Positions 8,634-47,019 are shown, numbered from the stretch's first letter. The stretch is 64,000 nt of DNA from Rickettsiales bacterium (GCA_031266915.1 JAISAB010000007.1:908-64907), one strand, 5' to 3'. Translations and numbers: made by a program. Notes: generated by a model from the letters alone, not told the origin.

Positions 8634-8786
8634 GGGGTGTAACTACCCAACAAACGCGTCAGCGCTGACGTTAAAAAGCTCCAACCGTCGGTTGGAGGGC
8701 CGGTGGAATAAGGCTTGCCGAATACACCGCACTATTCGTTTGATAGTAGTTAACCTCCAACCGCTTTTTTTTAATGCGGTTTTTTT
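8634..8786 (+). promoter_or_regulatory. Attenuator-like structured leader, copy A (no obvious downstream gene)
   Basis: TATAAT at 8600; GGGGTGTAACTAC pairs with GTAGTTAACCTCC; inner hairpin CTCCAACC-GTC-GGTTGGAG; terminator AACCGC...GCGGTT plus T-tract. Confidence 0.6.
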
Positions 8787-8959
8787 CGTGGGGCACAGTG
8801 ATTATTTTTCTCTCCTCCAAAATGAAAAAGGGTCGGTGCCCCACCTGATTATGTTTCGGGCTAATCATATTCGTCCACATTTTTTATCACCTGGGTCCCG
8901 TGGTCAAGCCACTGGATGACAAGTTTGTATTTTATTTTGACTAATCAGTTGAGCAAAAT

Positions 8960-8984
8960 AAAAGGCCGCGGTTCGCGGCCTTTT
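8960..8984. terminator. Bidirectional intrinsic terminator
   Basis: aaaaggccgcg-gtt-cgcggcctttt. Confidence 0.75.
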
Positions 8985-8985
8985 G

Positions 8986-9828
8986 TTATTTATTCCTGTC
9001 GATGACAGTATCGCACAGGCCCAGCATCAGGCACTCGGCGGCGTTCTTGTACAAAGCGCCGGCCTGGGCCATTTCATTCAATGATGCGGGCGTGATTTTA
9101 CTGTTCATGGAATATCCGTTTTCGACCGCTCTGTTACGATTTATATCCATGGATGTTTTGAATCCGCGGTCGGTTGGCATCGGATAATACATCACCTTGT
9201 GACGCGCGGTCGAATACATCTTGCGGAAATTCGGCGTGCCCATCGCGGCGACAATGCCGCCGATATTTCCGACATTGCCCGCAATAATCGTTTCAATGAT
9301 AACGCCGCTACGCTTGGCGGTATCAAATATATGTTTGATTTTCTTCAACGATGCGAAGTCTTGTTCCGATTCGTTATACGTTACGACGACGTTGATATTC
9401 TCTTTCTTCGCTTCCTTGCGCGGCGTGTCATCGTCAAAAACAAAATTCAACAAGTCTGAATCTTTGGAAACCTTGCCGTATCTGATTTCTTTGTTCAACA
9501 TCTTGCGGAAATCCGACAAGAACGCATCGGACGGCTTGCCGTTGAAATAAACGGTTTTGCCATCAATGCGGTTGCCGTTTGTTTCCGGGGACGGTGCTTT
9601 GGGTTCAACGCGCAAGAATTCAATATGTCTGAATTCCGGCGCCTTTTCCATTTCTACGGCGCCTTGAACCATAATCGAAATACCATGATTCACTTGGCCG
9701 GCGGGGTTTAAATTCAATATTGCCGTTCCGTCATCGTTCAAACGCGTCGTGCCGCTGCAATGCGCTGTAAAAGGATTGCCGTTGACGATGATGTCCAGCT
9801 TGACTTTATAATTATATGTGTTGCTCAT
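8986..9828 (-). CDS. Hypothetical protein with C-terminal degenerate ClpP-like domain
   Basis: IETIIAGNVGNIGGIVAAMGTPNFRKMYSTARH...AAECLMLGLCDTVI resembles the ClpP core; catalytic Ser not evident. Confidence 0.6.
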   Translation of the reverse strand: MSNTYNYKVKLDIIVNGNPFTAHCSGTTRLNDDGTAILNLNPAGQVNHGISIMVQGAVEMEKAPEFRHIEFLRVEPKAPSPETNGNRIDGKTVYFNGKPSDAFLSDFRKMLNKEIRYGKVSKDSDLLNFVFDDDTPRKEAKKENINVVVTYNESEQDFASLKKIKHIFDTAKRSGVIIETIIAGNVGNIGGIVAAMGTPNFRKMYSTARHKVMYYPMPTDRGFKTSMDINRNRAVENGYSMNSKITPASLNEMAQAGALYKNAAECLMLGLCDTVIDRNK

Positions 9829-9952
9829 TTTTACCTCAATTTTTTCATAATATAATACAAAAACATATGTTTGTCAATATATTGTTATTATTCTTGCCTT
9901 GGTGGGCGATTGGCGATAATATGGCCTGCGCTATTTAAAGGAAAAGAAGAAT

Positions 9953-12900
9953 ATGTCAAAATTGATAGTCGACGGCAACTGGGCCGCCGCGGACGTCGCG
10001 TACAGGTGCAGTGAATTTTCGGCGATTTACCCGATTACCCCCAGTTCTACAATGGGCGAATTGGCCGACGAGTGGACGTTCCAGCACAAAAAGAACATCT
10101 GGGGCGCCATCCCTGGCGTTATTGAAATGCAATCCGAAGGCGGCGCCGCCGGCGCGGTCCACGGGGCCTTGCAGATGGGCAGCTTGGCGACCACCTTTAC
10201 GGCCAGCCAGGGCCTGTTGCTGATGATTCCGAATATGTACAAGATTGCGGGCGAACAGACCCCGTTCGTCATGCACGTCGCCGCGCGCGCCCTGGCGACG
10301 CATGCGCTGTCCATCTTTGGCGACCACAGCGACGTCATGGCCGTGCGCCAGACGGGATTTGCGCTGCTGTCGTCCCACAATATCCAGCAGGTCGCCGACA
10401 TGGCTGCGATTTCGCACGCCGCGACGCTGCGCGCCCGTGTGCCGTTTCTGCATTTCTTTGACGGTTTCCGCACCAGTCACGAAGAATCCGCGCTGAGCCG
10501 AATCGAAGACGACGTTCTGCGCAAACTGATTTCGTCCAATGATTTGTTGGAATATCGCGCGCGCGGCATGTCGCCCGACTGTCCGACCGTGCGCGGCACG
10601 GCGCAAAATCCGGACGTGTTCTTTCAATCGCGCGAGGCCGCGAACGGCCTGTACGACGCCGCCGCCCACATCGTCGAAACGGTTATGGACGAATTCGCGG
10701 AACTGACGGGTCGCAGGTACGGCTTGGTCGATTACGTCGGCGATAAAAATGCCGAAAACGTCATCGTCGCCATGGGCAGCGCCTGCGAGACAATCGAAGA
10801 AACTTTGCCACATTTGCCCGGCGGTGTCGGATTGCTGAAGATTCATCTGTACCGTCCGTTCCCGACGGCCGCGTTTCTGGCCGCGCTGCCCAAAACAGTC
10901 AAACGCATCGCCGTATTGGACAGGACCAAAGAACCGGGCTCCATAGGCGAACCGCTGTATCTGGACGTGGTCGCCGCAACATCCATTATCAATCATCCAT
11001 TATCCATTTGCGGCGGCCGGTATGGACTGGGCAGCAAGGAATTCAAGCCGCGCGACGTCAAGGCCGTTGTCGAAAACATGATTCTGGGCACGCTGCATCA
11101 TAATTTCACGGTCGGTATCGAAGACGATTTGACGGGCTTGTCATTAAAGACCGACCCGGCGTTCCGTATCGAGCCCATTGACGGCAACCCGCGCGCCATG
11201 CTGATGTACGGTATCGGTTCGGACGGCACGGTGGGCGCCGTTAAAAACATCGTAAAGATTGTCGGCGATAATTCCGACTTGTATCCGCAGAGCTATGCGG
11301 TCTATGATTCCAAGAAATCTGGCGGCCTGACCGCGTCGCACTTGCGTTTCTGGGACCGTTCGATTCAGGCGCAATATCTGGTGGAATCCGCGGACTTTAT
11401 TTCCGTGTCGAACTTTATGATTGCCCAGCGTTTCGACGTCTTCGGCGCGTTGACGCCGGGCGGCATCGTCATGATTAATACCGGCATGACGCCGGACGCG
11501 GCGTTCGCGAACCTGCCGCGCGACACGCAAGAGCATTTAATCAGAATGCGCGCGCGTGTGTTCTTTCTGGACGCGAATCGCGCCGCGACCGAATTGGGAC
11601 TGGGCAACCGAATCAATACCTTTATCATGCTGAATTTCTTTAATCTGACCAAGATTATCGACCCGGCCATCGCCGCGGCCAGCGCCAAGGACGCCATAGA
11701 AAAATCTTATAAAAAGAAAGGCATGGACGTTGTCCAGGCGAACTGGGCCGCCGTGGACCGGGCGTCGGAATTCCTGACCGAGTACACATTGCCGTCGGGC
11801 GTTTCGAACTTCGCGCCAGAATTCGTTCCGGCAATGACCGCTGACGCGCCGGTCGCGATTGCCGGAACGCTGGGTGAAATCGCGGCGGGGCGGGGGGACG
11901 CGCTGCCGGTGTCTACATTCAAAATCGACGGCGAATTCGGCGCGGGCCAGTTTCCGGTCGGCACGGCCAAATATGAAAAGCGCGCGGTGTCCGACCGCGT
12001 CGCGACATGCGATTTGGAAACATGCATCCAGTGCGGAAAATGCTCGATGCTGTGTCCGCATGCGGCGATTCGCATCAACGTCGTCAAATCAGAAATCAGA
12101 GATCATAAATCAGAAATCAGTTTCGTTCCGATGAAGACGCCGGAACTGGGGCCCGATATGTTCTTTACATTGAACGTTTCGCCGGCCGATTGCACTGGGT
12201 GCAGCATTTGCATCAAGAACTGTCCGGTCAAAGCATTGGCCTTGGCGCCGATGGCGCAGGCATCTGGCGACCAAAAGGCGTTCGACGCGTCCGTCAAACT
12301 GCCGGAATTCCCGCGCGAAAAACTGAACCTGAATATCCCAAAGCATATCGAACTGCTGCCGCATTATTTCGAATTTTCGGGCGCGTGCGCGGGCTGCGGC
12401 GAAACGCCGTATGTCCGGATGCTGACGCGTCTGTTCGGCGACAGGATGGTCGTGGCGAACGCGACGGGATGCTCGTCCATATATGGCGCGAATTTGCCGA
12501 CAACGCCTTGGACGACGGATTCGAACGGCCGCGGGCCGGCCTGGTCCAATTCACTGTTCGAAGACAACGCCGAATACGGCCTGGGGATGCGCGTCGCGCT
12601 GAACCAGAAACGGGCCGCGCTGAAGGGATTGCTGTTCGAATTGAACGTGCCTGATGTCGAAAAGCTGTTCGATGAAAAAAACATCGCCAAGCAGCGCGAG
12701 AATGTTGAGAAGTTAAGAAGCATATTGTCAAATAAGGTCGCAGAGCGCAGAGCGAAGAGCGAAGATATTAAAAAGAATAAATCACCTGCGACCTGCGACC
12801 TGCGCTCTGCGCTCTGCCGCGAAGCGGCCCAGGCCTTGTCATTGCTTAATTCGCTCGTAGATAAGAGCATCTGGATTATCGGCGGCGACGGCTGGGCATA

Positions 12901-13540: not shown

Positions 13541-13542
13541 AA

Positions 13543-13812: not shown

Positions 13813-13819
13813 GTAAAAC

Positions 13820-20517: not shown

Positions 20518-23500
20518 ATGTTTAAACAAATATCCATTTTGGCCGTTTTATGCGCTGCGCCTGCGGCCGGTTTTGCCGCCGTTCTGGGCGGCAGTTACAC
20601 CTATTGCTCGCAAAACGGCGATGGAATCTGGGTCTGCGATCCGGTCGTTTGGAGCCAGCAGTCCGTCGGATCTGATGGCGCGCTGAATTACGTCGATACA
20701 ACCAGCAATTCGCTGGCCATCATGTCGGGCGGCGGATTAATCCTGGGGGATGGCAGCCAGAACAACGGCAACGCATTGGTCGTATCGGAAAGCGTTTATC
20801 TTGAAGGTATCGCTGGAACAACCGACCCCAGCGACCCTGATGGAATCCTGTACATAGAAAACTCGGCCACCGCCAGTTTCAGTATTACGGCGAACGGCAA
20901 CGTCAACATCGCGCAAAACCTGAACGTCGGCGCGGGCCGCGCGTTATTGCTGGGTGTCGGAAACCTGAGCAACGTAAGCATCGGTTCTATATCGAACTTG
21001 GGCGGGTTGGAGATTTCAGGAAACATCAACATATTAAACGTTGGAACGACGTCGGGTTCAGTGTTTACCGGCGGCGCGGTCACGACAAACGGTGACATGA
21101 CGCTGGGCGCCGCGACAATCAACACCGGCGTAATCACTAATAATTCGGGAAGCACCAGCATTACCGCCACGGGCGTGCTGACGATGGATGATTTTATCAG
21201 CAACAGCGCCGGAACGTCGGCAATTTCCGCGGATTCGATAAGCTTTGGCAATATCCAGAACAATTCGGGCGCGGGCGCGATGACGATTTCCGCCGCGACC
21301 AGCATGACCGGCACGGGCGGTATTCAGAATCTGTCGGATGCGCTGGTAACCATTAACGGTGGCGCGGTCACCGCGCAGACAATAACCAACAGTTCGAACA
21401 ACGGCGAGATTTTAATGAATGTCGCCAGCCTGACGCTGACCGGCGGCAATGGGTTTAACGCTTCGTTTGTGAACAAGGGCGATCTGGATGTAACCGTCGC
21501 CGGCGCGACGACTTTGGCGTACGGATTCGATTTAAGCGGCATGGCGAATACCAACAAGTTTTCGCTGAAGACGGGGACTTTGGCGTTCGGCAATCAGGCG
21601 TCTGCAGACGCGTGGCTGGCGCTGTTTTCGAATCGTTTGAATCTGTTCACGGTCGCGATAACCGGCGGCGATATAGGCAGTGCCTCAGCGCCGTTGAGCA
21701 TGATTAAAAATGGCGAGGGCAATACCGCCGGCGTCATGAATTTAACGTCGATGTCCGTGTATGCGGATTCCGTTCTGAATGCCGGACAGCAGCTGAACGT
21801 TACATCGACCAACGCGTCCGGCGGAATCTATGTCGGCACGACCGTGACCAATAACTTAGGTTCCATGACGATGGCTTCAAGCGGCGCATTGAATGTCACG
21901 GGCGGCGTAACAAATGACGCGACGATGACGCTGAACGGCAATGCGGTTACCTTGAATTCAGTCGAGAACGAAGGCATATTGAAAATTTCAGGGCTGACGG
22001 ATGCGACCGGAACAATCAAAGTTACCGGCAGTGTGGTCAATACGGTCGGAACGACAACAATCAACGCGCGCCAAATTGACATCGACGGCACGCTGACGAA
22101 CATTGCGGGCATCACGAACATCAGCGGTTCCGATTCGGCCGGCAACGGCATTGCAGTCGGCGACATCAACGTGGCCGGCGGGGTGGTAAATCTGGACGCC
22201 ACAATTGGAAAAATTATCGTCGACAATGCGATTTCCGTAAATGGCGGAGGCCTGAACTTTGGTCCGAACAGCAAAAGCGTCACCGCGGGTGACAGCATTA
22301 CGATAAGCGGCAATGTCACGGCCAGCGGCGCCGACGCCACAGATGCGGGCAATGGTGACGTGAATATCGCTGCGGTTGGACCGCAAGGCTTTTCGATGAC
22401 TTCGACCAACGGAAATATCACGATTTACGGCGATGTTTCCGTGATTGACAGCAACACCGCCCGAACGGTCGTGCTCGATTCCAAGGCTGCTGTTGACATC
22501 GCGGGCAATGTAACCGCGGGCGGCCAGGGACGCCTGACATTCGGCGATACATTGGCCCCCGGCGGCGTGTCGGCAACAAATTTGACGGTCGGCGGTCAAC
22601 TGGTATCCAATGCCGGCGGCATTGTCGACCTTAACATCGGCAACGTCAGCGTCGGCAGTTTATCCGGCGCGGGCAGATTCAATGCAACCGGTGCGATTAT
22701 CAAGGCGACATCCGCCATTGATAACGCGATAAATATTCAAAACGGAATCTGGTTTGACGGTACGAATCAAAATGCAACCAGCGGATTTATCGTAACCGGC
22801 ACGAGTGATTTGAGCTTGGTGACATCAGGCGCCGGCGCGGACATCAATGTCGCAGGCGGTATTGCGATTGGCGGCGGCAACACGCTGACGCTGAATTCAT
22901 CCGATCAGGTCGCGGTATCGGGCGCGGTGACAAACGCGGGAACTTTGAATGTTACCAAGGCGACGTCCGTATCATTCGTGAACGCGATTAATAATGCCAG
23001 CACGTTGAGTGTCGACGGCACGGCGCTGGGCGGCAGTATTGCATCCATAACCGCGAACGGGATTACAAATTCCGGCACGGCAACATTAAAGACATCAGGC
23101 GCATTAACTACAGGTGCCATCACCAACAGCGGAGCAATGACGGCCAATGCGAATTCCATTGTCGCGACCGCAATTAATTCGACCGCGGGCAGTCTGGATG
23201 TGACGGCGAATATGTTGAATATGACATTACTGAACGTGACCGGCGGTTATGTGAACTTAAATATGGACAATGTTTTTGCGACCGTAAGTATATCGGCCAC
23301 AGGTGATTTAGTCCAGGGCGCCGCGACGGGCATGTTGAATCTAACGAAAAATAATACGACATTATTTGCGAATAATTTGACAATTGGCGGCGACTTTATC
23401 GCCAATCAATACAGCGTGAAATATGATGTTGTGAGCGTATTTACTGTGACCGGCAATATGACCGTGGCATTCGGCGCAACGGTTGATGTCGACCCGAATA

Positions 23501-25779
23501 CAATCAGTATCGACGATGTGACGAATAACGGCACACTGCTGTTGACCGCGGATTCTGTGGACTTGGGCGATGTCGTAAATTCCGATAGCTTGACGATTAA
23601 TTCCGCGAATATTCTGACGGTCAACAGTTTTACAACAAATTCCACCAGCGGCACGACATTGACAGGCATCGGTCTGACATCCGCCGGCAATATCGAACTG
23701 GCTGGCCGATTGATGCAAAACGCGTCCGGCACGACCGGTAGCGGTGACGTGAATGTTGTGGCCAATAGCTATACTGTCAACGCGACAAGCATTATCGCGA
23801 ATGGAATCAACCAAAAATCCGGCATAATGACGTTGAACACAAGCGATTTGAAAATCGGCGAACGCGACTCTGTCTCGGGCAATATTACGAAGATTGGCAG
23901 CATTATCGCCACCGATTTGCGCGTTGCAGCTGCCGGCGCGAATTGGCTGAACGTCGATGTAACCGGAAGCGTTTCTGGCGGCGTCGACTTTATCGGTCTG
24001 GAAAGAATGACAGTCGGCGGAAATTATATCTTTGACGATGACAGTATTCTGATGGCGGCGATTTTGGACCGTAGCGTTACGGCTCATAATTACTGGGCGA
24101 CGGTCAGCTTAAGCGACGACAAAACACTGGGACAGATTACAAACGGCGCGAATCCTGAGCCCTTGATTTCCATCAACGGCAAATTTATTTCCCAGATGGA
24201 TTTCGACAATCCAAACATGTACTATGATTGGAACGACAAGACCGTTGGCGATGTCATGGACGGTCAGATGGGCGTCTATATCACGGACATCGTGGACCAG
24301 GGCAGCGCGATTTGGCTGATTCATGCGGACGGCGGCATCGAAGACGACGGCAAGAAACTGCGCAATGCGGTCGTTCGTTTCTGCAATGCGGACGGTTCAA
24401 TATGTTACAATTACATGGATTCGTTGCGACAGGGCAGCGCGAATGAAAACGATTTGCCGATTTATCTGTCGGCGCGCGATACCGATGGCGACGGCGAGGC
24501 CGACAGCTGGTACCTGGTGTTTGACCCGCGTTTCGGCGGGCCGGTGGAACTGTTCAAGATTCAGCCGATTGTCGGCCGCGAGGACATTCATACTGACGGA
24601 GAATACTTTACGGCCGGCGCGCTGGACGATTTGTTGGCGGGCCGCATGAATCAGACCGGTTTTTATAACCGCACGCCGATTGAATTGGTGCCGATTGTAT
24701 TTGAAAACACGAACTTGGAAACGATGTCCCGGGAATTGTACGACCGTATGGAACAGTATGTTCTGGACCGCAACGGCGCGGCGCTGGCGCGCTTCAGCCG
24801 CCTGTTCCAGCCGCGCGAGATAGAGCAGGTCGCCGGCGCCGTCGCCCTGAACGAACACACGACATTCCGCGATTTCGAATACCGTATGTTCGACGAATTT
24901 ATCTGGAATCGCAATCGCAGTCTGAAAAAGGCCTGGGTGGATGTAGATTTCGGCGCATGGAATCAAAATGTATCGGACGGCAAACGCGTCGATGGCGAAC
25001 GTTTCAGCATCCAGGGCGGATTCGACTGGCAGGATTCCAAGACTTTGATTCTGGGTATCGCTGGACATATTTCGCACATGGCCGGCAGCAACTGGGACGA
25101 AATGGATTTGGGATACAAGCCGGGCAAATCGATTGCCGGCCGCATGGACGTCGATGTCGCGACAACGAATATCGGCATGGGCGGTTATCTGATGAATACG
25201 CTGGGAACGGGGGCGCGTTTGTACGGCAATGCGTTTCTGGATTTGCATTTGTTCGACATTATTCGCGACCAGAACTTTGTCTCGACAATCAATGGTTCCG
25301 GCACGGCGTTCAGCATTATCACCGAATGGGGCCTGCTGCACGATTGGCTGAATCAGTACATCGTCGGCAACGCTTATGTGCGCGCCGGATACAATTTCGG
25401 CTTTGACATTACAGAGCAGGCCGATGGCGGCGATTATATGAAGCTGGAATCCGCAGGGTACATGATTTTGACGCCGGGTTATTCCCTGACCGCGCAGAAA
25501 AGAATCTATACATCGCCTTGGTTCCAAATCCGCCCGTATCTGTCGGTCGGCGCGGAATACGACATGTTGGGCATTCCGGACGCCGCGCAGTTTAAATTCG
25601 CGTATGCGAACAAGTTCACGGACTATGACATAAACATCGACCCATTGTGGGTGAACGGCGGCGGCGGCATGGAATTCCTGGGGGCCAGTGGATTCCAGTT
25701 CGGCGTCGATTACCGCTATCAGCACAATGCCGACATCCAGATGCACAAAATCAAGCTGTCCGGTTCGTACAGATTTTAA
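20518..25779 (+). CDS. Large autotransporter-like outer-membrane protein
   Basis: Signal peptide, long G/N/T/S-rich beta-helix-like passenger, C-terminal beta-barrel ending in YRF. Confidence 0.85.
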   Translation: MFKQISILAVLCAAPAAGFAAVLGGSYTYCSQNGDGIWVCDPVVWSQQSVGSDGALNYVDTTSNSLAIMSGGGLILGDGSQNNGNALVVSESVYLEGIAGTTDPSDPDGILYIENSATASFSITANGNVNIAQNLNVGAGRALLLGVGNLSNVSIGSISNLGGLEISGNINILNVGTTSGSVFTGGAVTTNGDMTLGAATINTGVITNNSGSTSITATGVLTMDDFISNSAGTSAISADSISFGNIQNNSGAGAMTISAATSMTGTGGIQNLSDALVTINGGAVTAQTITNSSNNGEILMNVASLTLTGGNGFNASFVNKGDLDVTVAGATTLAYGFDLSGMANTNKFSLKTGTLAFGNQASADAWLALFSNRLNLFTVAITGGDIGSASAPLSMIKNGEGNTAGVMNLTSMSVYADSVLNAGQQLNVTSTNASGGIYVGTTVTNNLGSMTMASSGALNVTGGVTNDATMTLNGNAVTLNSVENEGILKISGLTDATGTIKVTGSVVNTVGTTTINARQIDIDGTLTNIAGITNISGSDSAGNGIAVGDINVAGGVVNLDATIGKIIVDNAISVNGGGLNFGPNSKSVTAGDSITISGNVTASGADATDAGNGDVNIAAVGPQGFSMTSTNGNITIYGDVSVIDSNTARTVVLDSKAAVDIAGNVTAGGQGRLTFGDTLAPGGVSATNLTVGGQLVSNAGGIVDLNIGNVSVGSLSGAGRFNATGAIIKATSAIDNAINIQNGIWFDGTNQNATSGFIVTGTSDLSLVTSGAGADINVAGGIAIGGGNTLTLNSSDQVAVSGAVTNAGTLNVTKATSVSFVNAINNASTLSVDGTALGGSIASITANGITNSGTATLKTSGALTTGAITNSGAMTANANSIVATAINSTAGSLDVTANMLNMTLLNVTGGYVNLNMDNVFATVSISATGDLVQGAATGMLNLTKNNTTLFANNLTIGGDFIANQYSVKYDVVSVFTVTGNMTVAFGATVDVDPNTISIDDVTNNGTLLLTADSVDLGDVVNSDSLTINSANILTVNSFTTNSTSGTTLTGIGLTSAGNIELAGRLMQNASGTTGSGDVNVVANSYTVNATSIIANGINQKSGIMTLNTSDLKIGERDSVSGNITKIGSIIATDLRVAAAGANWLNVDVTGSVSGGVDFIGLERMTVGGNYIFDDDSILMAAILDRSVTAHNYWATVSLSDDKTLGQITNGANPEPLISINGKFISQMDFDNPNMYYDWNDKTVGDVMDGQMGVYITDIVDQGSAIWLIHADGGIEDDGKKLRNAVVRFCNADGSICYNYMDSLRQGSANENDLPIYLSARDTDGDGEADSWYLVFDPRFGGPVELFKIQPIVGREDIHTDGEYFTAGALDDLLAGRMNQTGFYNRTPIELVPIVFENTNLETMSRELYDRMEQYVLDRNGAALARFSRLFQPREIEQVAGAVALNEHTTFRDFEYRMFDEFIWNRNRSLKKAWVDVDFGAWNQNVSDGKRVDGERFSIQGGFDWQDSKTLILGIAGHISHMAGSNWDEMDLGYKPGKSIAGRMDVDVATTNIGMGGYLMNTLGTGARLYGNAFLDLHLFDIIRDQNFVSTINGSGTAFSIITEWGLLHDWLNQYIVGNAYVRAGYNFGFDITEQADGGDYMKLESAGYMILTPGYSLTAQKRIYTSPWFQIRPYLSVGAEYDMLGIPDAAQFKFAYANKFTDYDINIDPLWVNGGGGMEFLGASGFQFGVDYRYQHNADIQMHKIKLSGSYRF

Positions 25780-26144: not shown

Positions 26145-26411
26145 TTGCATTGCCCGGGATTTATTTCTATAATTCAATTCGAAACAACAGGGATGTTGGT
26201 TCAGGGACTTGAAAATCCTAATAACATAACGGCGCTTAGCGGCGCTGAATCCGACGGATGAAATATGGACGCGGATGCGTCTTTTATTTTATCAACCCGA
26301 CCGCACAGGTCGGGGGTCCGCGACCATACAACAGGTTCGCCGAAAGTCGCGGGGTCATTTTATGTTATGATTTTTCAAATCCCCGACCGCCAATTCCTTG
26401 GCGGTTTTTTT
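26145..26411 (+). promoter_or_regulatory. Sigma70 promoter plus attenuator-like leader, copy B
   Basis: TTGCAT-17 bp-TATAAT; GGGACTTGAAAATC...ATAACATAA pairs with TTATGTTATGATTTTTCAAATCCC; inner hairpin CCCGACC-GCACA-GGTCGGG; terminator ACCGCCA...TGGCGGT plus T-tract. Confidence 0.7.
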
Positions 26412-28780: not shown

Positions 28781-28975
28781 TGTTATAATCACAATGCTTC
28801 CAATCGGGGGCCGAGGCTTGAAAATCTCGCAATTGATGCGCCTGGGATAGGCGCATAAGAAAACGTATCCCGCTTGTGGCGGGATTGTCTCCGCTATATA
28901 TCGAAAGCGGCGACGGTCGTTCAATTGCGATTTTTCAAAGTCCCGCCGCCTTTTGGCAACTGCAACCAAAAAGGA
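28781..28975 (+). promoter_or_regulatory. Extended -10 promoter plus structured leader, copy C (last stem covers the RBS)
   Basis: TGTTATAAT; TTGAAAATCTCGCAATTGA pairs with TCAATTGCGATTTTTCAA; inner hairpin ATCCCGC-TTGTG-GCGGGAT; CCTTTTGG pairs with CCAAAAAGG over AAGGA. Confidence 0.6.
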
Positions 28976-28982: not shown

Positions 28983-29705
28983 ATGAAAAAAATATCAATA
29001 ATCGCCGTACTCGCCGCGGCCCTTGGCGCCTGCGACAAATATGAAACCGTGTACCTGGATTGCGGTCCATGGGATGTCGTCGCCAAAATATCGAACCAAA
29101 AGGCAACCTTGAATATTTCGGTTGAAGAAAATAATACATTCAGTCTGGACGAGTACTATCCGGAATTGCAAAATGCCAAAAATCTGAAAGTGGATTTGGC
29201 TCGCGTCGCCAGCAGATTCAGCGATAATTGGGTTGATTTTGTCGGCAAAATTCCGGGGGCGGAAAATGAAACCGGCATAGATGTGAGATATAACCACAAA
29301 TTCAAACGATTCGTTGTTTCCGGTTTTACTGTGAAGGAAAACCATACTTGGAGCTGTAATACATTGACGAAACTGCCGGTAAAGATAGAACAACCGAAAA
29401 ATCTGGCGCGCGTCGGCAAAAAAGAACGCGCCCGCGTGGAATCATGCATCGATTATATTGTCAAGAACGCCCAGGTGATGTACGGTCCGGACGGCATGGA
29501 TTTGCAATTTAAAGACAGCGAAGGAAAATGGATGGACATCAATCAGGAAACGGCGCTGTCGTTGTCCAAAAATTGGGATTTCAATGATATGAAACTGTAT
29601 CAGAACAATGCCGACGGCTATCTGTTCGATTATGAATTGGACGCCTGCGATACAATGTCCAGGATGCAGGAATTTCTGAAACAGATAATAAATAATAAAG
29701 AATAG
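28983..29705 (+). CDS. Hypothetical lipoprotein
   Basis: MKKISIIAVLAAALGAC lipobox; AAGGA RBS. Confidence 0.8.
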   Translation: MKKISIIAVLAAALGACDKYETVYLDCGPWDVVAKISNQKATLNISVEENNTFSLDEYYPELQNAKNLKVDLARVASRFSDNWVDFVGKIPGAENETGIDVRYNHKFKRFVVSGFTVKENHTWSCNTLTKLPVKIEQPKNLARVGKKERARVESCIDYIVKNAQVMYGPDGMDLQFKDSEGKWMDINQETALSLSKNWDFNDMKLYQNNADGYLFDYELDACDTMSRMQEFLKQIINNKE

Positions 29706-29955
29706 AGAATAAAGTAGGGGCGCATATTTGCGCCCTTTTTATTCCCCTCCATAGGAGGAGAATTCAGACCGAGCACATCATTTTTACTTTTGTTTCACTG
29801 GATTGCCGCGGGGCTAACGCCCCTAGCAATGACATAGTGGTTGGTATTGGGTATTTGGAATATCATCCATTATCCCTTATCCATCATCCATTATCCCTTA
29901 TCCATCATCCATTAACTATTATCTGTGCTCTGTTAATTGTTAACTGAAAATATCG

Positions 29956-34179: not shown

Positions 34180-34881
34180 ACATTGCGCGATAAAGCGCGA
34201 TGTGTGTGTTTTGCGTTTTTTCAAACGATGAACAGGTTTGTAAAAATCCCGCCGACCCAGCGGGATTTTTTAAAGAATAAAGAGTAAAGAATAGAGAATA
34301 AATAATTCCAGAGTTTGTCATTGCGAGGGGCGTCAGCCCCGCGGCAATCCAGTGAAACAAATTTGTGCGCCCAACGGGCGCACACTCTTTTTGTCTCTCC
34401 TCCTCTTGGGTGGGAGTACCGTCCGCCTTCGTCCGTCGCCGCGGGAGCGGCGCCGAGACTACGGCGCGACCGTACTCCTCTACAGGAGGAGAACTTAAAG
34501 TGCGATAAAGCCACGCTCTATATTATCTGGATTACCGCGTGGCTGGCGCCCCTTTTTGGTTACCACTTAACAGAACACAGAAACAGTTAAATTCCTCTCT
34601 GGCTAAGGGGGCGGCGTGACGGGGTGTGATATAACGCTTCTTTTGGTGAACAACTGATAAACACATTATAATGGTGTGTATTGACTGGACTATGGGAATT
34701 ATTTCCTTGACAAATCTGTTTTAAATGAATATATTCCAAAATAGGAACTGGGGTAGTCTGTGACGCCACTTGTGGTATGCAATGGACGACTTTGCTAGTA
34801 AGGGCCTGGAATTATGCGCATCCGCTTTTTGCGAAGCGCTTTTTCTATTTCGAAAAGCACACTAAAAACAAAGGAAAAAAT

Positions 34882-36437: not shown

Positions 36438-36899
36438 ATGAAGAAATTTTGCATTTATTTGGCCTTTGGGCTTTGCGTTACCGGCGCGTATGCAGCCGGC
36501 GGCCACGATACCATCGCCGATATATATTTCCGGTTTGACAAGTCGGATATAACGCCGGTCGCTTCGGTCGTTCTGGAAAATGTCGCGGCCCGCGTGGAAC
36601 ATCCGAAATGCGTATCAGTCCGCGTTGTCGGTCATACGTGCGCGCTGGGCAAAAAAGGATACAACGACAGACTTGGTTTGAAGCGCGCCAAATCCGTGAA
36701 AGCCGCGCTTGTCCGCATGGGATTTAATCCCGATAATATTCAGGTCGAAACAGTCGGCAGTCGGGAACCGATTGCGAAGTACGATCGCGCGGGCAGCCGT
36801 ACCGAGAAAAACCATATCCGGAACCGTGTTGCGGAAATTTATCTTTTGCCGCGCACCACCAGCTGGTGGCAGGAGTTCAATTGCAAACGGGGTTTATAA
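36438..36899 (+). CDS. OmpA-family peptidoglycan-binding protein
   Basis: IYFRFDKSDI, VVGHTC, YNDRLGLKRA, NRVAEI. Confidence 0.85.
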   Translation: MKKFCIYLAFGLCVTGAYAAGGHDTIADIYFRFDKSDITPVASVVLENVAARVEHPKCVSVRVVGHTCALGKKGYNDRLGLKRAKSVKAALVRMGFNPDNIQVETVGSREPIAKYDRAGSRTEKNHIRNRVAEIYLLPRTTSWWQEFNCKRGL

Positions 36900-36923
36900 A
36901 AAACCGGCTTTGGCCGGTTTTTT
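36899..36923. terminator. Intrinsic terminator
   Basis: aaaaccggc-tttg-gccggtttttt. Confidence 0.75.
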
Positions 36924-40385: not shown

Positions 40386-41222
40386 TTATCGTTTATTCAA
40401 TATGTTGTATTTGTGAACCAGTTTCAGGACCGTGTATTTGTTTCTTAGCTTGCGGCGCACACTTGTGAACGGCAGCACCAGAAATCGTACGGCCTTATAC
40501 GCGATGTACGACACCAGCGGGTGTTTGAAATCCCACTGGTCCGCAACTTCTGGAAAATGCCGTGTGATTATCAAATATCTGTCCTGGATGCTTTTCAAAG
40601 ACCAGTAATCGCTGGACACGCCGGTGTGGTCGAAGTGCGACACGCACAGGTCGACAAAACGGAACCGCACGCCGCCGTTCCAGAATTTTATATTCAAATC
40701 CCAATCAGAAAACACCGGCATGGATATGTCATAGAATCCGTGTTTTTCAAACAAATCGCGGCGAAAGAACATCGCCTGGTGCGGCAGTCCCTGGCTTATC
40801 CAATAGCAGGGGTCTTTTTTGATTTTATCCATCGGGACGCGAAACGTCCGCTGCAATTTGCCATTCAGCGTGTAATAAATGTATCCATAGACGATTTCGT
40901 CACCGCTTTGGATTTCGTCGTTCATGCGCGCCAGAACTCCGTCGTTGGCGAACATGTCGCCGGCGTTCATGAAATTCACGTAATCACAGGACGCGCGGCG
41001 TACGCCCTTGTTCAGCGCGTCGTAAATGCCCCGGTCCCGTTCGGAAACAAAGACGTCGATCCGGTCGCGGTATTTATCGAACATGGCCAGCGTTTCAGCG
41101 TTGCTGCCGCCGTCGATGACAATCCATTCGAAATCTTGGAAAGTCTGGCTGGCGATGCTGGCGCAGGTGCGTTCCAAGTTCGGATCGTTATAGCATATTG
41201 TGATAATAGAAAACTTTGGCAT
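40386..41222 (-). CDS. Glycosyltransferase family 2
   Basis: FSIITICYN, WIVIDGGS, DRGIYDALNKG, FMNAGD, HQAMFFR. Confidence 0.93.
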   Translation of the reverse strand: MPKFSIITICYNDPNLERTCASIASQTFQDFEWIVIDGGSNAETLAMFDKYRDRIDVFVSERDRGIYDALNKGVRRASCDYVNFMNAGDMFANDGVLARMNDEIQSGDEIVYGYIYYTLNGKLQRTFRVPMDKIKKDPCYWISQGLPHQAMFFRRDLFEKHGFYDISMPVFSDWDLNIKFWNGGVRFRFVDLCVSHFDHTGVSSDYWSLKSIQDRYLIITRHFPEVADQWDFKHPLVSYIAYKAVRFLVLPFTSVRRKLRNKYTVLKLVHKYNILNKR

Positions 41223-41347
41223 GCATGCATCCTTGTAGATTTCTGATGACAGGGGCGGGCGGATATTTATCCCAATCGGCAGACATGCGCTGAAGTGTGC
41301 GCTATTGCGGGTTATTCGTCCGGTTAATTCGAATTCAATAGGAAAAT

Positions 41348-41603
41348 AAAACCGCCAAGAAATTGGCGGTCGGGCATTTCAAAAATCATACCACGAATGA
41401 CTCCGTGACTTTCGACGGACTCGTCTTATGACCACGGACACCCGACCATGCAAAAAGGCCAGGCTGCAACAGCGCAAAGCGCCATTATACAGAAATCGGA
41501 TAACGGCACTGTTGCGCCGCATGGTATGGGCTTTTGAAACCCCGAACTTCAATTCCCGTTGAAATTCGTTATGAATTATAAATGATGCGCAAAGGAAAAT
41601 CAA
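41348..41603 (-). promoter_or_regulatory. Sigma70 promoter plus attenuator-like leader, copy D
   Basis: Minus strand TTGATT-17 bp-TATAAT; GGGGTTTCAAAAGCCCATACCA pairs with TGGTATGATTTTTGAAATGCCC; terminator ACCGCCAA-TTTC-TTGGCGGT plus T-tract. Confidence 0.65.
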
Positions 41604-42033: not shown

Positions 42034-42882
42034 CTATTTGCTAATTGCTATTTCTACCAATTCCTTGACAATCGCGGCGGACTTCGCGTCGCCGCTGGGC
42101 GCGTATTCTACGAATTCGATGCTGTATGCCTTGTCCTTGAAGGCGCCGATAAAGTGCCTGGCCGCTTCTACGCTGATGCCGTTGTATGCCGGAACCAGAA
42201 CGTCCCTGAAAACATACGGGTCAAGGGAATCAAAGTCAAAGGACAAGACATAAGGTTTGTCGCCGATTTTTTCCTTGATTTCCGCGACCGCTTTGCACCA
42301 ATCCTCGGGGCGGCGCAATTGCTTTGGACTACGCGCGTATATGCCCTTGCTCAGGACAAAATGCGCCTCGGCCGGTTCAAAGGAACGAACGCCCAGATAG
42401 AAAACGTTTTCCGTTTTCAGCGCCGGACATTTATGCTGCAAAGACAGCCACCGCGCGTCGCCTTTGCCCAGAGCAGCGCGGACATTCGTGCCGTGCGGGG
42501 TGCCTGATGCCTCGCGTATGGCGCTGTCGGGCGTGTGTATGTCAAAATGCGCGTCGATGTAAATCAAACACAAATCCTGGTCGGGCAACTGGTCCGCCAG
42601 CGCGGCGAAATGGCCGAAGTTCACCGAATGGTCGCCGCCAATCATAATGTGCCTTTCGCGCGGCGTATTTTTGTAAATTTCACGCTGGATTTTAAAATTT
42701 TCGCCAAAACGGTCGTGTTCGCATTCTTCGGCGTTGAACGGTTCCGCAGTCACCATGGTCCAATCCGCGTTCGGGAACATTTTTCGAACCTGCGCCGGTG
42801 CCAGGGCAGTTCCGCCCGGTGCCGCGACGCGCAGGCACCCTCGGCCATATTCTATACCAAAAAAGGGAAGATATTTCGTCAT
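42034..42882 (-). CDS. Arginase/ureohydrolase family protein
   Basis: GGDHS, IYIDAHFDIHTP, SGTPHG, SFDFDSLDP. Confidence 0.92.
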   Translation of the reverse strand: MTKYLPFFGIEYGRGCLRVAAPGGTALAPAQVRKMFPNADWTMVTAEPFNAEECEHDRFGENFKIQREIYKNTPRERHIMIGGDHSVNFGHFAALADQLPDQDLCLIYIDAHFDIHTPDSAIREASGTPHGTNVRAALGKGDARWLSLQHKCPALKTENVFYLGVRSFEPAEAHFVLSKGIYARSPKQLRRPEDWCKAVAEIKEKIGDKPYVLSFDFDSLDPYVFRDVLVPAYNGISVEAARHFIGAFKDKAYSIEFVEYAPSGDAKSAAIVKELVEIAISK

Positions 42883-42984
42883 GATTTAATCCTGTTTTTT
42901 ATTAAAAATTACATGACATTGTGACAATTAGTCTATCGAAAAACAAGGTTAAATTACGGAAAAAATCTTTCGGAGGTAACGACT

Positions 42985-44001
42985 TTATTTTTTATAAGAT
43001 TCTACAAAACTTTCCGCTGCATTCTTGATTTTTTGCAGCGAATTTTCATAAACGGCGCAATCGCGCGCTATATCCGAACGATACGCGTCGCGCATGTTGT
43101 TGGCCATATAGTAACAGCCGCGCAGATGCTGGACGCAGTAATCGTGGCCGGCCACGAACGATGCCTGTCCGCGAACGCGGCTTTCGGTGTCCGCCCAGTT
43201 TATGTCCAGCGCTTGTTCCAGCTTGACCCAGGAATTGTCGCCCATATGAACGCCGATAACATCGTTCCAGTAATCGTTCATTTCGGCCTGCGACCATGTG
43301 CTCGTCCCCGCCTTCAGAGCCATGATTTGCTTAATCAAGTCGTCAATTGCGGGCTTATACGTCGCGTCGATTTGCGCCAGACGCGCGCTGCAGTAACAGC
43401 GCTTGTAATCCATTTCCTGGCGCTGGCAGTATCCGTCCATGCACGCCGTGTAATCAGCCATGCAGCGGTTCGCGGATAAGGGCTCGCCAGTCGATTGCAC
43501 TGCGGCACTCGTGACAGTTTCAGTGCGGTTCACATACCCGCTTTCGGGGCGTGCGCTGCGGGCGACCGAGCCGCCGGCAGTATTTCCGCGGGAAACCACG
43601 CGCCGCGTATTATTGGACGATGCGACGGCCGCATTTGATGCAAATGTGTTGCTGACCGCAGCGCGGGCGACACCGCTGGACGGTGCGATGGAACGGGCGG
43701 ATGCCGGCGCGACGGTCGCGCCGCCGGTTGCGCTGCGCGCCAACCCGGACCGCGATACGACGCGCCGGCTGTCACTGCCTGACGTCCGGGTCAGCGTGGA
43801 TACGGAATTCGGCGAAAAATCAGGCGTAACGCCGGGATTTAAATTTGTCCGCATGGTATTGTTCATCGCCGGATACATGATTTGATAGGCCTCTGGCGTG
43901 ACGAAATTCGCCACTGCTGTGCGCGCGGTTGCCGCGGCATCAGCCGCACCCGTGACAATCAGGGGCGCCAGAACAAGCAAAAAAATCAGAACCTTGGGCA
44001 T
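42985..44001 (-). CDS. Secreted hypothetical protein (Ala/Arg/Ser-rich linker plus Cys domain)
   Basis: Signal peptide; RRVVSR/ARSA repeats; CMADYTACMDGYC...RCYCS. Confidence 0.8.
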   Translation of the reverse strand: MPKVLIFLLVLAPLIVTGAADAAATARTAVANFVTPEAYQIMYPAMNNTMRTNLNPGVTPDFSPNSVSTLTRTSGSDSRRVVSRSGLARSATGGATVAPASARSIAPSSGVARAAVSNTFASNAAVASSNNTRRVVSRGNTAGGSVARSARPESGYVNRTETVTSAAVQSTGEPLSANRCMADYTACMDGYCQRQEMDYKRCYCSARLAQIDATYKPAIDDLIKQIMALKAGTSTWSQAEMNDYWNDVIGVHMGDNSWVKLEQALDINWADTESRVRGQASFVAGHDYCVQHLRGCYYMANNMRDAYRSDIARDCAVYENSLQKIKNAAESFVESYKK

Positions 44002-44097
44002 TTGTCGTATTGTAGGAAGTTCCTGCGCGACGGGCAAGCACAAAATGCATTTTGAATTTGCATTTGATAAAAAGATTGTTATAATTTCCGAGGTTAT

Positions 44098-44174
44098 CGG
44101 GGCGTAGCTCAGTCTGGTAGAGTGCTTGGTTTGGGACCAAGATGTCGCGTGTTCGAATCATGTCGCCCCGACCA
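44098..44174 (+). tRNA. tRNA-Pro(TGG)
   Basis: CGGGGCG acceptor stem, CTTGG-TTTGGGA-CCAAG anticodon arm, GTTCGAATC, CCA end. Confidence 0.97.
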
Positions 44175-44400
44175 CACTTCGCGTCTGCGACGCTTCGTGT
44201 GGCTTCGCCATATCCTGTAAAGCCCGCGTCAAGTGGGCTTTACGTTTCCATTGACTCTGGTATGGAGTTCTAAAGTACTATTTTTGTGCCAAATATACTG
44301 CTTTTTATACAATGTCCATTTTTCAGGAGTCAATAAAAAACTTTCAAGTTTTAGATTTGTGTGCTATGATATAGTATATCAAAAAATCAAAGGATTTAAA

Positions 44401-44886
44401 ATGACGAAGACAAAAAACACCATTTCTGAATTGGTTAATTTTGGAAAAGAAGCATTATTTTATACAGTTGTAGTCGGAGTTCTTGGTTTTTTAACAACAT
44501 CTGTATGGGAGCTTGTCTTAAATTGGGGCGATTTGCAGTCTTTCGCTTGGGATTCTGTTCGCAATGTTACGCTTTATTTTGCGGGGGGGACAGCTGGCCT
44601 TTTTGCCGTTGTTGGCGGCGGCATAAAGTTAACCGATTTTATCAAAAGTAAATTTGGCAAGTCTGAAAAGGTAAGCTCGGTGTCCGTAAAATCAAATGAA
44701 AGACAAAATGTTAATACAAGACATTATTCACATACGGTGCAACGTTCGGCTGAAATAGACAAATCTTCGAATGAAATAAATAACGTTAAAAAATCAGGAC
44801 AAAAATTGAAACAAAAACGACAAAGAAAATCAAACATATCTGGTCTGAATTTAATCCGTAACAAACTGTGGCAACGCGGTCGTTAA
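44401..44886 (+). CDS. Hypothetical membrane protein
   Basis: Two TM segments and a basic tail; AAGGA RBS; AT-rich. Confidence 0.65.
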   Translation: MTKTKNTISELVNFGKEALFYTVVVGVLGFLTTSVWELVLNWGDLQSFAWDSVRNVTLYFAGGTAGLFAVVGGGIKLTDFIKSKFGKSEKVSSVSVKSNERQNVNTRHYSHTVQRSAEIDKSSNEINNVKKSGQKLKQKRQRKSNISGLNLIRNKLWQRGR

Positions 44887-44970
44887 ATATACGGATACAT
44901 TAGATATATGAATTATGGTACGGCTAAGTTAGCAACTAACTGGTGACCATCCGCTTTCACTGCTTAAGAT

Positions 44971-45573
44971 ATGAAAAACAAAATCGCAGAATTATTAAAA
45001 TTGACCGATGATGGTCAAATCGTTGCCAAGCTTCAAGAAATAAACGAATTATTCCTGAGGCAATATTTGCTGAATGTCGACGGAATTATTGCGCAGCCCC
45101 TGCAGGTAGAGGCGTACTATAATAATCCCGGCGTATTTGAAGACATGAATTCGCATTGTAATTTCAATCAAAAAAACAGATTTGGCCGGTTGTATTTCCA
45201 CGGGTACCCGGCCCGCCCGGTGCGCGTGGGCGACAAGACGTGCTATGGCGTCGATATAGTCTTGTCGGATTCCGATGATTACTATTTATCGCTGTTATTA
45301 AAGCGGTCTTGCATCGGGAACGATGTTTTAACGCAAACCAAAGTTGATGCTGCACTGCGGGGGCACGGGGATTTGAATGCGGTTGTGCTGACCCCGCGCC
45401 AAGATAAGAAATCGGGTCCGGTGTTTCATATAAAACGCATCGGATTAAACAATCCGAACAAGCAATATCGTGATGCGGCTCTGGGCGCAATTATTGATTT
45501 GGACAAATATCCAACAAACGCATTCGCATATCCGCGCGGCGGCCGGCATCAGTTAATAAATAATAAAGAATAG
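44971..45573 (+). CDS. Hypothetical protein resembling the 3-methyladenine DNA glycosylase (MPG/AAG) family
   Basis: VEAYY...SH...GRLYFH...VDIV...LLLK...RIGL pattern. Confidence 0.5.
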   Translation: MKNKIAELLKLTDDGQIVAKLQEINELFLRQYLLNVDGIIAQPLQVEAYYNNPGVFEDMNSHCNFNQKNRFGRLYFHGYPARPVRVGDKTCYGVDIVLSDSDDYYLSLLLKRSCIGNDVLTQTKVDAALRGHGDLNAVVLTPRQDKKSGPVFHIKRIGLNNPNKQYRDAALGAIIDLDKYPTNAFAYPRGGRHQLINNKE

Positions 45574-45866
45574 AGAATAAAGAATAAATGATATGCTCGG
45601 TCTAAGTTCCCCTCCTGTGGAGGGGTGGCATGCGAAGCATGACGGGGTGGTTCGAGGCTTTTATATTAAGCTCTGATTCTCTAACCACCTCCTCGTCAGC
45701 CTTTGCTTCGCTACGGCGCGCCGGTACTACCCCACATGAGGAGAACTTGGACCGAACATCAAATGTTAAAAATTACCGAATATGATAATTGTTGACATTT
45801 ATGAATTTTTGGCTAATATATTCCAGGTCGGGATAGGGGAAGAAAAACAAATGCGGCCTATAAAAC

Positions 45867-46649
45867 ATGAAAAGCTTTTATCTTCAATATCATCCTAATA
45901 ACAGAGGTATTTGGGAACATGCCGATGCTTTGCGGTTGTCGGATATAACTGGAACCGCGCGGCAGAATTTGCTCTTGATTGGCGGCGGAAAATCGTCTGC
46001 GTCCGCGCTTGGCTGTATGACGCGCGCAAATATTTATAATGTGGATTTTGAGGTATACGCGGACAGCACGGAAAAAATCAGGCAGATACAAGCCGATTAT
46101 ACGGAATTGAACGCTTGTCCGAATAAATTTGATATGGCGTTGTCTTTATTTTGTCTGCCCATGTATGCCGTTTCAGAACGAGCGGTTAATTTATTCTTCC
46201 TGAAGACAGCATTAAACTTGAAACCCGACGGCCAGCTGCGTTTCAGTCCTGTTCTGGCCGGAAACTTGGAAGACAGAGAAAAGCATATTGGCAAAAACCT
46301 TGAATTTCTGGCAAGCATAGGCTTTACAGTTATTTTGGCATACAAACCGTACAAGAAATTAGAATACGATTTTCAAGAGGCGACGGATAAAAATGATTGC
46401 TGGACGGAATATTTCAATAATCTTAAAGGCGTGCATTATTTTCATTCCAATTTTGAAATACATCATGAATGCGCCGTTATACAGGCGCCAAGCCGGTACA
46501 ACAAGGAAGTGTCAGATAAATTGCTTTGCAAAGAAATAGAGTCTGTAAATAAAAACTTCCCGGTTGAAACCTTTGAAGTTTATGCTGAAAACGGCAGTAG
46601 AATACCGTTGAATCAGTTGCTGCAAAACAAAAACGCGTTATTTAAATAG
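45867..46649 (+). CDS. Putative class I SAM-dependent methyltransferase-like protein
   Basis: LLLIGGGKS, IYNVD, FDMALSLF and LKPDGQLRF resemble methyltransferase motifs I-III. Confidence 0.5.
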   Translation: MKSFYLQYHPNNRGIWEHADALRLSDITGTARQNLLLIGGGKSSASALGCMTRANIYNVDFEVYADSTEKIRQIQADYTELNACPNKFDMALSLFCLPMYAVSERAVNLFFLKTALNLKPDGQLRFSPVLAGNLEDREKHIGKNLEFLASIGFTVILAYKPYKKLEYDFQEATDKNDCWTEYFNNLKGVHYFHSNFEIHHECAVIQAPSRYNKEVSDKLLCKEIESVNKNFPVETFEVYAENGSRIPLNQLLQNKNALFK

Positions 46650-46777
46650 TCGTTTCAGACTGCGTATCCGCCCCATATCGCCGACCATCCGCTTGTCGCT
46701 TGCACGACGGGGTGGTTCGAGACTTCGAGATTTAACTCTGACTATTTATTCTCTATTCTTTATTCTCTATTTTTGCC

Positions 46778-47019
46778 TTGCAATAATTTTATATTATTCA
46801 TATAATATCGGTGTCGCGGAGAGTTTCCGCGGCGAGGTGTCGAAACCTCTTTATCGGGCGTCATTGGTAAATATGGGGCGCGTATGCGCTTTTATTTTTG
46901 CCGTGATGAAACACAACTCCTGACAAGGTCAGGAGGGCACGCGAATATATTGAATAAGCGGCACAATTTCCTGATAATTGTTTCGAACCTCCTGACCACC
47001 AATTTTCATGGTGGTTTTT
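46778..47019 (+). promoter_or_regulatory. Sigma70 promoter plus attenuator-like leader, copy E, upstream of the DGR target
   Basis: TTGCAA-17 bp-TATAAT; GAGGTGTCGAAAC pairs with GTTTCGAACCTC; inner hairpin CTCCTGAC-AAG-GTCAGGAG; terminator ACCACCA...TGGTGGT plus T-tract. Confidence 0.7.

Follow-up and report, generated by a model that had tools for sequence, protein, structure and literature searches.

The 64,000-nucleotide (nt) stretch of DNA analysed here (JAISAB010000007.1:908-64907 of assembly GCA_031266915.1, from a Rickettsiales bacterium), hereafter called the window, carries five sites, A to E, at each of which a promoter is followed by a leader RNA of about 160-230 nt. A first-pass annotation, made from the sequence alone, had presented them as five divergent copies of one promoter-plus-RNA-switch architecture. 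The five sites exist where it placed them and are mutually homologous, and they belong to a family of 88 copies in the genome, whose RNA can adopt two mutually exclusive folds and usually stands directly before a gene.

From 5' to 3', the layout comprises the promoter; a hairpin a at the predicted +1; a hairpin b; one to three variable hairpins; an A-rich spacer; an inner hairpin (H) formed by two strands that we call X'up and X; hairpin 1, with a conserved internal loop; hairpin 2; a short spacer; the strand X'down; a terminator hairpin that starts inside X'down; a U-run; an A-rich stretch; and a strong Shine-Dalgarno (SD) sequence with its start codon. X and X'down are inverted repeats of 9-11 bp lying about 55-95 bp apart, and the terminator stands 10-25 nt before the ribosome-binding site (RBS). 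As had been proposed, all five sites have a near-consensus -10 hexamer, and B, D and E have a -35-like hexamer at exactly 17 bp; across the genome, a script scan found a -10-like box in 82/88 copies and a -35 element with at least 4/6 matches in 50/88. The sites had been placed correctly, except that their start coordinates omitted the first 5' hairpin (about 21 nt) at the predicted start (8613, 26181, 41567 and 46813). In the subtype represented by B (26181-26202) and D (41544-41567), hairpin a has a loop and upper stem that we take to resemble the consensus hairpin bound by CsrA; a search of the genome for a CsrA gene found none.

In the first of the two folds, which is the energy minimum, a long 5'/3' helix (L), the inner hairpin H and a complete intrinsic terminator are formed together. 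One side of helix L is made up of hairpin b and the stretch that follows it; the other consists of the 3' side of hairpin 2, the spacer and the initial bases of X'down. In the second fold X, the 3' strand of H, re-pairs with X'down, the 5' base of the terminator, and the resulting helix (P) closes a three-way junction around hairpins 1 and 2, a core of the type known from sRNA-Xcc1 (Rfam RF02221). The long stem, inner hairpin and final terminator of the first-pass annotation were all present in the minimum free energy (MFE) folds of B and E (z-scores of -6.78 and -7.49; 0/200 shuffled sequences folded as well). When the full leaders of all 88 copies were folded, H was part of the MFE structure in 78 cases and the complete terminator in 72; L was formed in 73 and P in only one. 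The alternative pairing of X with X'down is real as well: P has at least 7 contiguous pairs in 88/88 copies and at least 9 in 81/88, and it is the best-kept helix of all. That the sequences differ while the pairing is kept, as had been remarked for five copies, holds for 40 different X strands, and the inner hairpin of copy D is indeed weak (Table 1).

By a strict rule, 64/88 copies have a hairpin of 5 bp or more that leads into four or more consecutive T, and 59 of these 64 stems use the last 4 nt of X'down. The remaining copies mostly have interrupted U-runs, and 2/88 (E54 and E75, one of which is copy C) have an RBS-covering stem; the final stem had rightly been described as a terminator or an RBS-occluding element, C ending in the latter without a terminator. 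The last 3-4 bases of helix P also belong to the terminator stem, and P is exclusive with H and L as well. Forcing its formation had a median cost of 7.9 kcal/mol for an RNA ending at X'down and of 12.0 kcal/mol for the full leader. Both hallmarks of attenuators are thus found here, a terminator before the gene and an antiterminator with a competing anti-antiterminator. Because H, the terminator and L dominate the MFE folds while P is conserved, exclusive and costly, we take the design to be a default-OFF four-segment attenuator with an extra long-range lock.

All three competing helices pair better within a copy than across copies. Strand X forms 9.76 contiguous pairs with its own X'down, compared with 6.66 against the X'down of other copies; the corresponding values are 7.75 and 5.73 for H, and 8.13 and 6.7-6.8 for L, whose sequences are element-specific and for which the difference persists among copies of one X class. 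In a relative of copy B from the same genus, the L pair is entirely different in sequence and still complementary. In a MAFFT alignment of core and terminator (A3), 84.3% of the cells were paired, compared with 73.3% in shuffles, and the covariation score was 0.395, compared with 0.211, a value reached by 0/500 shuffles; slid controls gave at most 58% paired cells and a covariation of at most 0.167. A model-fitted alignment (A5) gave 0.408, compared with 0.191 in shuffles. The covariation expected from the first-pass annotation was found, with the proviso that the copies are paralogues and that shuffle tests overstate significance accordingly, which the own-versus-cross tests within a class correct in part. 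G.U oppositions outnumbered A.C ones by 49:11 in H, 41:14 in P (90:25 for the two together) and 87:8 in hairpin 2. The covariation of the helices and this excess of G.U over A.C mismatches show that selection works at the RNA level and in a strand-specific manner. The different complementary L pair in the relative of B and the other X/X' versions elsewhere are harder to explain by ancestry.

Table 1. Parts of the five window copies and the genes behind them. Positions count from the first nucleotide of the window; part coordinates were read by hand from sequence rulers. R1 is the covariance model of the core.
Copy	Feature	Position	Strand	Value or remark
A	Consensus -10 hexamer	8600-8605	+	
A	Whole RNA, predicted start to end of U-run	8613-8786	+	R1 65.1 bits; orphan, no gene behind
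A	5' hairpins a, b; b is the 5' strand of long-range helix L	8613-8648	+	
A	Inner hairpin H (X'up, loop, X), putative anti-antiterminator	8679-8698	+	9 contiguous pairs
A	Xcc1-type core; helix P (X/X'down) encloses hairpins 1, 2	8690-8762	+	10 pairs
A	Intrinsic terminator, 5' base overlapping X'down	8759-8786	+	
B	Promoter: -35-like hexamer (26145-26150), 17-bp spacer, consensus -10 (26168-26173)	26145-26173	+	
B	Whole leader RNA	26181-26411	+	MFE -94.7 kcal/mol, z -6.78
B	5' hairpins a, b and 5' strand of helix L	26181-26230	+	
B	Inner hairpin H (X'up, loop, X)	26296-26316	+	
B	Xcc1-type core (P, hairpins 1, 2)	26308-26388	+	RF02221 46 bits; R1 54.4 bits
B	Intrinsic terminator overlapping X'down	26386-26411	+	
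B	Downstream gene, 215 aa	26434-27081	+	Signal-peptide-like start, 18 Cys, no Pfam family
C	Consensus -10 hexamer	28784-28789	+	
C	Whole leader, 5' end approximate	28796-28974	+	R1 40.1 bits
C	Inner hairpin H	28867-28885	+	8 pairs
C	Xcc1-type core	28878-28947	+	RF02221 30.2 bits; 10 pairs in P
C	Final stem covering RBS, no U-run	28949-28974	+	One of 2/88 such copies
C	Downstream gene, 240 aa	28983-29705	+	Lipoprotein-like start, no Pfam family
D	Promoter: -35-like hexamer (41603-41598), 17-bp spacer, consensus -10 (41580-41575)	41575-41603	-	
D	Whole leader RNA	41343-41567	-	R1 46.4 bits
D	5' hairpins a, b	41528-41567	-	
D	Inner hairpin H, weak	41439-41463	-	7 pairs, some G.U
D	Xcc1-type core	41368-41447	-	11 pairs in P
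D	Intrinsic terminator overlapping X'down	41343-41370	-	
D	Downstream family-2 glycosyltransferase gene, about 120 nt behind terminator	40386-41222	-	PF00535, E 4.6e-23
E	Promoter: -35-like hexamer (46778-46783), 17-bp spacer, consensus -10 (46801-46806)	46778-46806	+	
E	Whole leader RNA	46813-47019	+	MFE -88.4 kcal/mol, z -7.49
E	5' hairpins a, b; b is the 5' strand of helix L	46813-46849	+	
E	Inner hairpin H	46917-46936	+	
E	Xcc1-type core	46927-46997	+	10 pairs in P; R1 63.8 bits
E	Intrinsic terminator overlapping X'down	46995-47019	+	
E	SD and downstream gene, 182 aa	47034-47593	+	Signal-peptide-like start, no Pfam family

The genome to which the window belongs has 1,091,825 bases in 26 contigs and is 95% complete. 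Its UvrA is 79-83% identical to those of uncultured gut and rumen Alphaproteobacteria, many labelled Candidatus Enterousia, and judging from such matches the host is an uncultured Candidatus Enterousia-like gut alphaproteobacterium. These bacteria form the order Rs-D84, whose members have reduced genomes and are probably partner-dependent, according to PMC12306168. The sole public run containing window DNA is one DNA run, labelled termite gut metagenome, which is probably the source sample.

A profile made from the five sites retrieved 69 copies in this genome and, in a second round, 88 (nhmmer, E<1e-3), spread over nearly all of its contigs. The family is therefore much larger than the five members first proposed, which are only those of the window; three further copies lie on the same contig beyond it. 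All 88 were found again by a covariance model (R1), which describes the 73-position core only, the 5' domain, H and the terminator having been tested with our own scripts. The core was detected by R1 in 30/40 relatives, namely 21/24 genomes of the same family and 9/16 genomes from five other families of the order, and in 9/149 further alphaproteobacterial genomes. It was detected in 0/150 genomes sampled across the phylum, with strict filters and 30 candidates scored per genome. Copy numbers in the relatives are to be read as 'at least', and the highest number seen was that of the window genome. Two other alphaproteobacterial families have the same full layout before lipoprotein genes, and other families of bacteria carry different X/X' versions within the same layout. 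The leader family is real, dispersed and conserved across the order. No description of it was found in the literature on sRNA-Xcc1, Enterousia or the motif, the primary 2011 sRNA-Xcc1 paper lying outside this search.

Behind 71/88 copies, an SD-led open reading frame (ORF) of at least 60 amino acids (aa) begins within the scanned 260 nt, and the gap is at most 60 nt in 63/88. The other 17/88, including copy A, which no gene follows, have no ORF of that size behind them. One orphan subtype, which comprises A and copies E19, E23, E64 and E86, has an additional conserved G-rich/C-rich hairpin just past the terminator (window 8787-8850 for A) and no ORF; a second, with six copies (L104, L105, L117, L142, L158 and L159), has a different pair of 3' hairpins. 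Among the 68 complete downstream ORFs, 55 have no Pfam family at E<=0.001, and the rest include four with XRE-type helix-turn-helix (HTH) domains (HTH_3 or HTH_31), the family-2 glycosyltransferase behind D, and matches to PAP2, a YadA-type anchor, a trypsin-like protease, Laminin_G_3 and Gly_rich_2. Under a crude criterion of hydrophobicity applied to genes of at least 100 aa, signal-peptide-like starts were present in 47/51 leader genes, compared with 214/962 other ORFs (22%), so that leaders precede 47/261 genes with such starts (about 18%). The genes concerned encode mostly small, cysteine-rich exported proteins. As for translation signals, a full five-base SD core was found before just 68 ORFs of at least 100 aa genome-wide, 17 of which are leader genes, and the two bases after this core are those that complement the X'down flank, in preference to the 16S tail, in 9/17 leader genes, compared with 9/51 others.

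Elsewhere in the window, positions 20518-25779 (+) encode a 1753-aa repetitive protein with a signal-peptide-like start and an autotransporter-barrel-like C-terminal region, without a Pfam match at E<=0.001. Short multi-copy repeats with raised contig depth and many contig joints lie at gene ends (29903-29946, 34305-34375 and 45555-45635). Sub-threshold Rfam matches just past gene ends, to PrrB/RsmZ (29.1 bits, E 0.0079, 29625-29743 +) and to rsmX (24.2 bits, 36810-36923 +), are probably structured repeats and not Rsm RNAs, because no CsrA gene was found.

We think it probable, if far from certain, that the leader is a cis-acting transcription attenuator with two exclusive folds. In the OFF state, the 5' region (hairpin b and the following stretch) would pair as helix L with the stretch before and into X'down, and X would be held by X'up in H, so that X'down would be free to complete the terminator. 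In the ON state, X would pair with X'down and close the sRNA-Xcc1-type junction; P would thereby remove 3-4 basal pairs of the terminator, and RNA polymerase would read into the gene. As OFF is the thermodynamic default, some input must favour ON, the candidates being a small ligand or protein at the junction, an RNA acting in trans, or transcription kinetics. The notion of a dispersed attenuator family controlling surface genes, put forward in the first-pass annotation, is thus supported by the family, its layout and the excess of signal-peptide-like starts.

Several points weigh against this proposal. We infer termination, read-through and their regulation from structure. In stability the ON fold falls short of OFF by 8-12 kcal/mol, a cost that a ligand, protein or RNA would have to pay, and P could serve to close a mature small RNA released by processing, as in the stand-alone sRNA-Xcc1, rather than as an antiterminator. 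The covariance model is limited to the core, the remaining parts resting on our scripts, and the paralogy of the copies inflates the significance of the shuffle tests. Finally, because 17/88 copies have no ORF behind them, the RNA also exists as a stand-alone gene.

Two other pairings were considered and rejected. Sequestration of the SD by X'down received no support, since the pairing was not element-specific (5.48 pairs with the own SD, compared with 5.40 within the class) and the SD had no consistent partner in the MFE folds of read-through transcripts. A c4-like target at the downstream RBS was rejected as well: the core showed no element-specific complementarity to the downstream RBS and start region (own 8.3, cross 7.9). 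With regard to protein partners, no gene for CsrA or Hfq was found in the 95%-complete genome; no ANTAR domain was found in it either, which says little, as that search matched in no control genome.

It is also conceivable, and in our estimate unlikely, that the short terminated RNA is the main product and acts in trans or in both modes, in the manner of c4/CI, IsrK or Brt. Its partners would be other mRNAs or the read-through transcripts of the same locus or of sister loci; the orphans would be dedicated regulators. The existence of ORF-less copies, among them two subtypes with extra conserved 3' hairpins, is consistent with such a role, as is the fact that many copies share one X/X' version (13 in the largest class), which makes cross-pairing possible; besides, the upstream L strand relates to the hairpin-2 loop as the target repeats of c4 relate to its loops. 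There are precedents, too: RF02221 is filed as a trans-acting small RNA, the short form of IsrK activates the read-through form (PMC4825925), and a dual role has been proposed for Brt1 (PMC5387305). However, the null results for the core against the RBS, for X'down against the SD and for a consistent SD partner speak against pairing in trans, no Hfq gene was found, and there was no significant Rfam match to C4, IsrK or c4-a1b1 (best 21 bits, E 0.17). That the elements are placed so strictly, 10-25 nt ahead of ribosome-binding sites, speaks for action in cis. Another view, which we consider decidedly improbable, is that of a constitutive structured 5' module or a processed stable RNA: the promoter would be strong, the 5' hairpin protective and the terminator leaky, expression would be low and fixed without any switch, and the mature RNA would be closed by P. 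The strong energetic preference for OFF and the 5'-terminal hairpin at the predicted +1 would suit this view. So would a purine-C-C after P in 69/88 copies, loosely resembling a tRNA acceptor end, given that the c4 precursor is a substrate of RNase P. Yet the terminator stem requires purine-C-C anyway and the next base is A in 33/88 copies only, so an acceptor mimic of the RNase P type was rejected, its fourth base being unspecific. Moreover, one strand has three partners (X'up, X'down and the 5' strand of L), all kept by compensatory change, which is hard to understand without switching.

Most improbable, to our minds, is that X, X'up and X'down are inverted repeats of a DNA invertase and that the segment or the terminator flips as a phase-variation switch. 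The genome does encode three serine recombinases, one with a 221-aa frame, together with tyrosine recombinases, and the spacing and length of X and X'down given above would suit such repeats. The small recombinase with the 221-aa frame lies at G000:C6:3133-3558 (-), locus L182. Invertible switches of the cwpV/Mpi type occur in both orientations and have mismatches without strand bias; here, 88/88 cores have one orientation relative to terminator and gene, as do 14/14 copies at 13 loci of other genera, and an excess of G.U over A.C, as seen in H and P, would be expected of helices in RNA read on this strand but not of repeats in DNA. Logan contigs of the single DNA run bridge C, D and E unflipped and contain no opposite-strand X/X'down joint, although contigs can miss rare variants; the opposite-strand or skip joints listed in them are at multi-copy repeats or partial sister-copy matches (likeness 90). 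Lastly, there is a full-length match between the core and a covarying Rfam RNA model. DNA inversion is therefore unlikely for the leader element, and the invertase may serve other elements.

In this 1.09-Mb genome, a single RNA design precedes about 5-7% of all genes and about 18% of those with signal-peptide-like starts. A bolder idea, which we regard as rather doubtful, is that the Xcc1-type junction is a sensor, for a small molecule, a protein or the sister orphan RNAs, and gates about a fifth of the exported proteome through 60-70 default-OFF attenuators. Were this so, it would to our knowledge be the densest cis-RNA regulon described, and it would give sRNA-Xcc1, and perhaps the Bartonella Brt RNAs, a mechanism. 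The 40 different X/X' versions could be address codes that switch groups of surface genes together or exclusively. Irrespective of the sensor, these natural sequence versions are a ready compensatory-mutation series for a two-state RNA switch, and the family ties the poorly understood sRNA-Xcc1 to a concrete cis-regulatory architecture with testable helices. Because one design precedes so many genes, RNA-level control seems to take the place of much of the regulation of the cell surface by proteins in these bacteria, which have reduced genomes and are probably partner-dependent (PMC12306168 for the lifestyle).

At gathering thresholds, Rfam found only three tRNAs in the window. In a search by E-value, RF02221 matched B with 46.0 bits (E 5.9e-5, model positions 1-87) and C with 30.2 bits, compared with a cut-off of 53; no match was listed for A, D or E in the window. 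Genome-wide, 27 copies matched at 24-46 bits, none of them over the cut-off. In relatives, one copy reached 58 bits, above the cut-off, and others 52.3, 51.5 and 51.4; the 58-bit copy has the same leader context and precedes a cysteine-rich exported protein. The full-length alignments keep the three helices of the junction and the conserved loop bases, and R1, which recovers 88/88 copies, has this same topology. Because the scores run from below the threshold up to 58 bits in relatives, the core is best regarded as a distant branch of the Xcc1 family, whose closing stem in the Rfam model corresponds to helix P.

The junction, with its closing stem, the internal loop of hairpin 1 and hairpin 2, is thus common to the leaders and to sRNA-Xcc1, an integron-cassette RNA of Xanthomonas campestris. 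The latter is described as a trans-acting small RNA on mobile elements. Here, by contrast, the core is the 3' part of a leader of about 160-230 nt with a 5' domain of about 100 nt, and it lies directly before chromosomal secreted-protein genes, in 88 copies per genome: 63/88 copies, distributed over many chromosomal contigs, have an ORF no more than 60 nt behind them, and A and 16 others stand alone. The 5' domain, the decoy strand X'up, helix L and the fusion of the terminator to the closing stem have no counterpart in Rfam. The family had been called possibly undescribed, which has to be given up for the core, a distant relative of RF02221. What appears to be new is the 5' domain (about 100 nt), the logic of two states and the use as a cis leader, which are absent from Rfam and from the literature searched.

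The comparison with phage c4 and CI RNAs made in the first-pass annotation is apt as an analogy and unsupported as to membership. Against the Rfam models C4, c4-2, c4-a1b1 and IsrK, the best match was to c4-a1b1, with 21.2 bits (cut-off 46.7) and an E-value of 0.17, in one of 20 loci, and no C4/IsrK-type match was found in the window at E<=10. In the systems of phage P1/P7 c4, phage P4 CI and Salmonella Gifsy-1 IsrK (PMC4825925 for IsrK), as here, a leader RNA with its own terminator contains internal elements complementary to repeats in the same transcript, two conformations decide on downstream expression, and the short terminated form is an RNA product. Unlike them, our leaders precede chromosomal secreted-protein genes rather than serving phage immunity, and no conserved RBS target was found.

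A further parallel, and a precedent for the attenuator proposal, is provided by the Brt1-9 RNAs of Bartonella (Tu et al. 2016, PMC5387305), which are also multi-copy, strongly folded alphaproteobacterial RNAs with their own promoter and a 3' terminator-like region before a gene. They are about 200 nt long and highly expressed, and in culture they end ahead of the gene that follows; the authors of that study suggested a riboswitch, with a dual cis/trans role for Brt1. Brt RNAs have been linked to the expression of surface adhesins, and the downstream Trp genes are XRE HTH genes. However, there are nine Brt copies, all before HTH genes, compared with 88 here, mostly before exported proteins (an XRE-type HTH was found in 4/68 downstream ORFs and not in the other 64), and the two families are likened by description only; an Rfam cmscan of the window and 20 loci named no Brt family.

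There is also a formal match with classical four-segment attenuators, in which pairings 1:2 (here H) and 3:4 (the terminator) compete with 2:3 (here P), and the 5' base of the terminator is shared with the antiterminator. The leaders differ from them in the extra long-range helix L; also, no leader peptide was noticed, in the course of work that included no systematic search for one. Most leaders end in a terminator and 2/88 in an RBS-covering stem, and riboswitch families vary their expression platforms likewise; the leaders' copy number per genome is far above that of any riboswitch class known to us.

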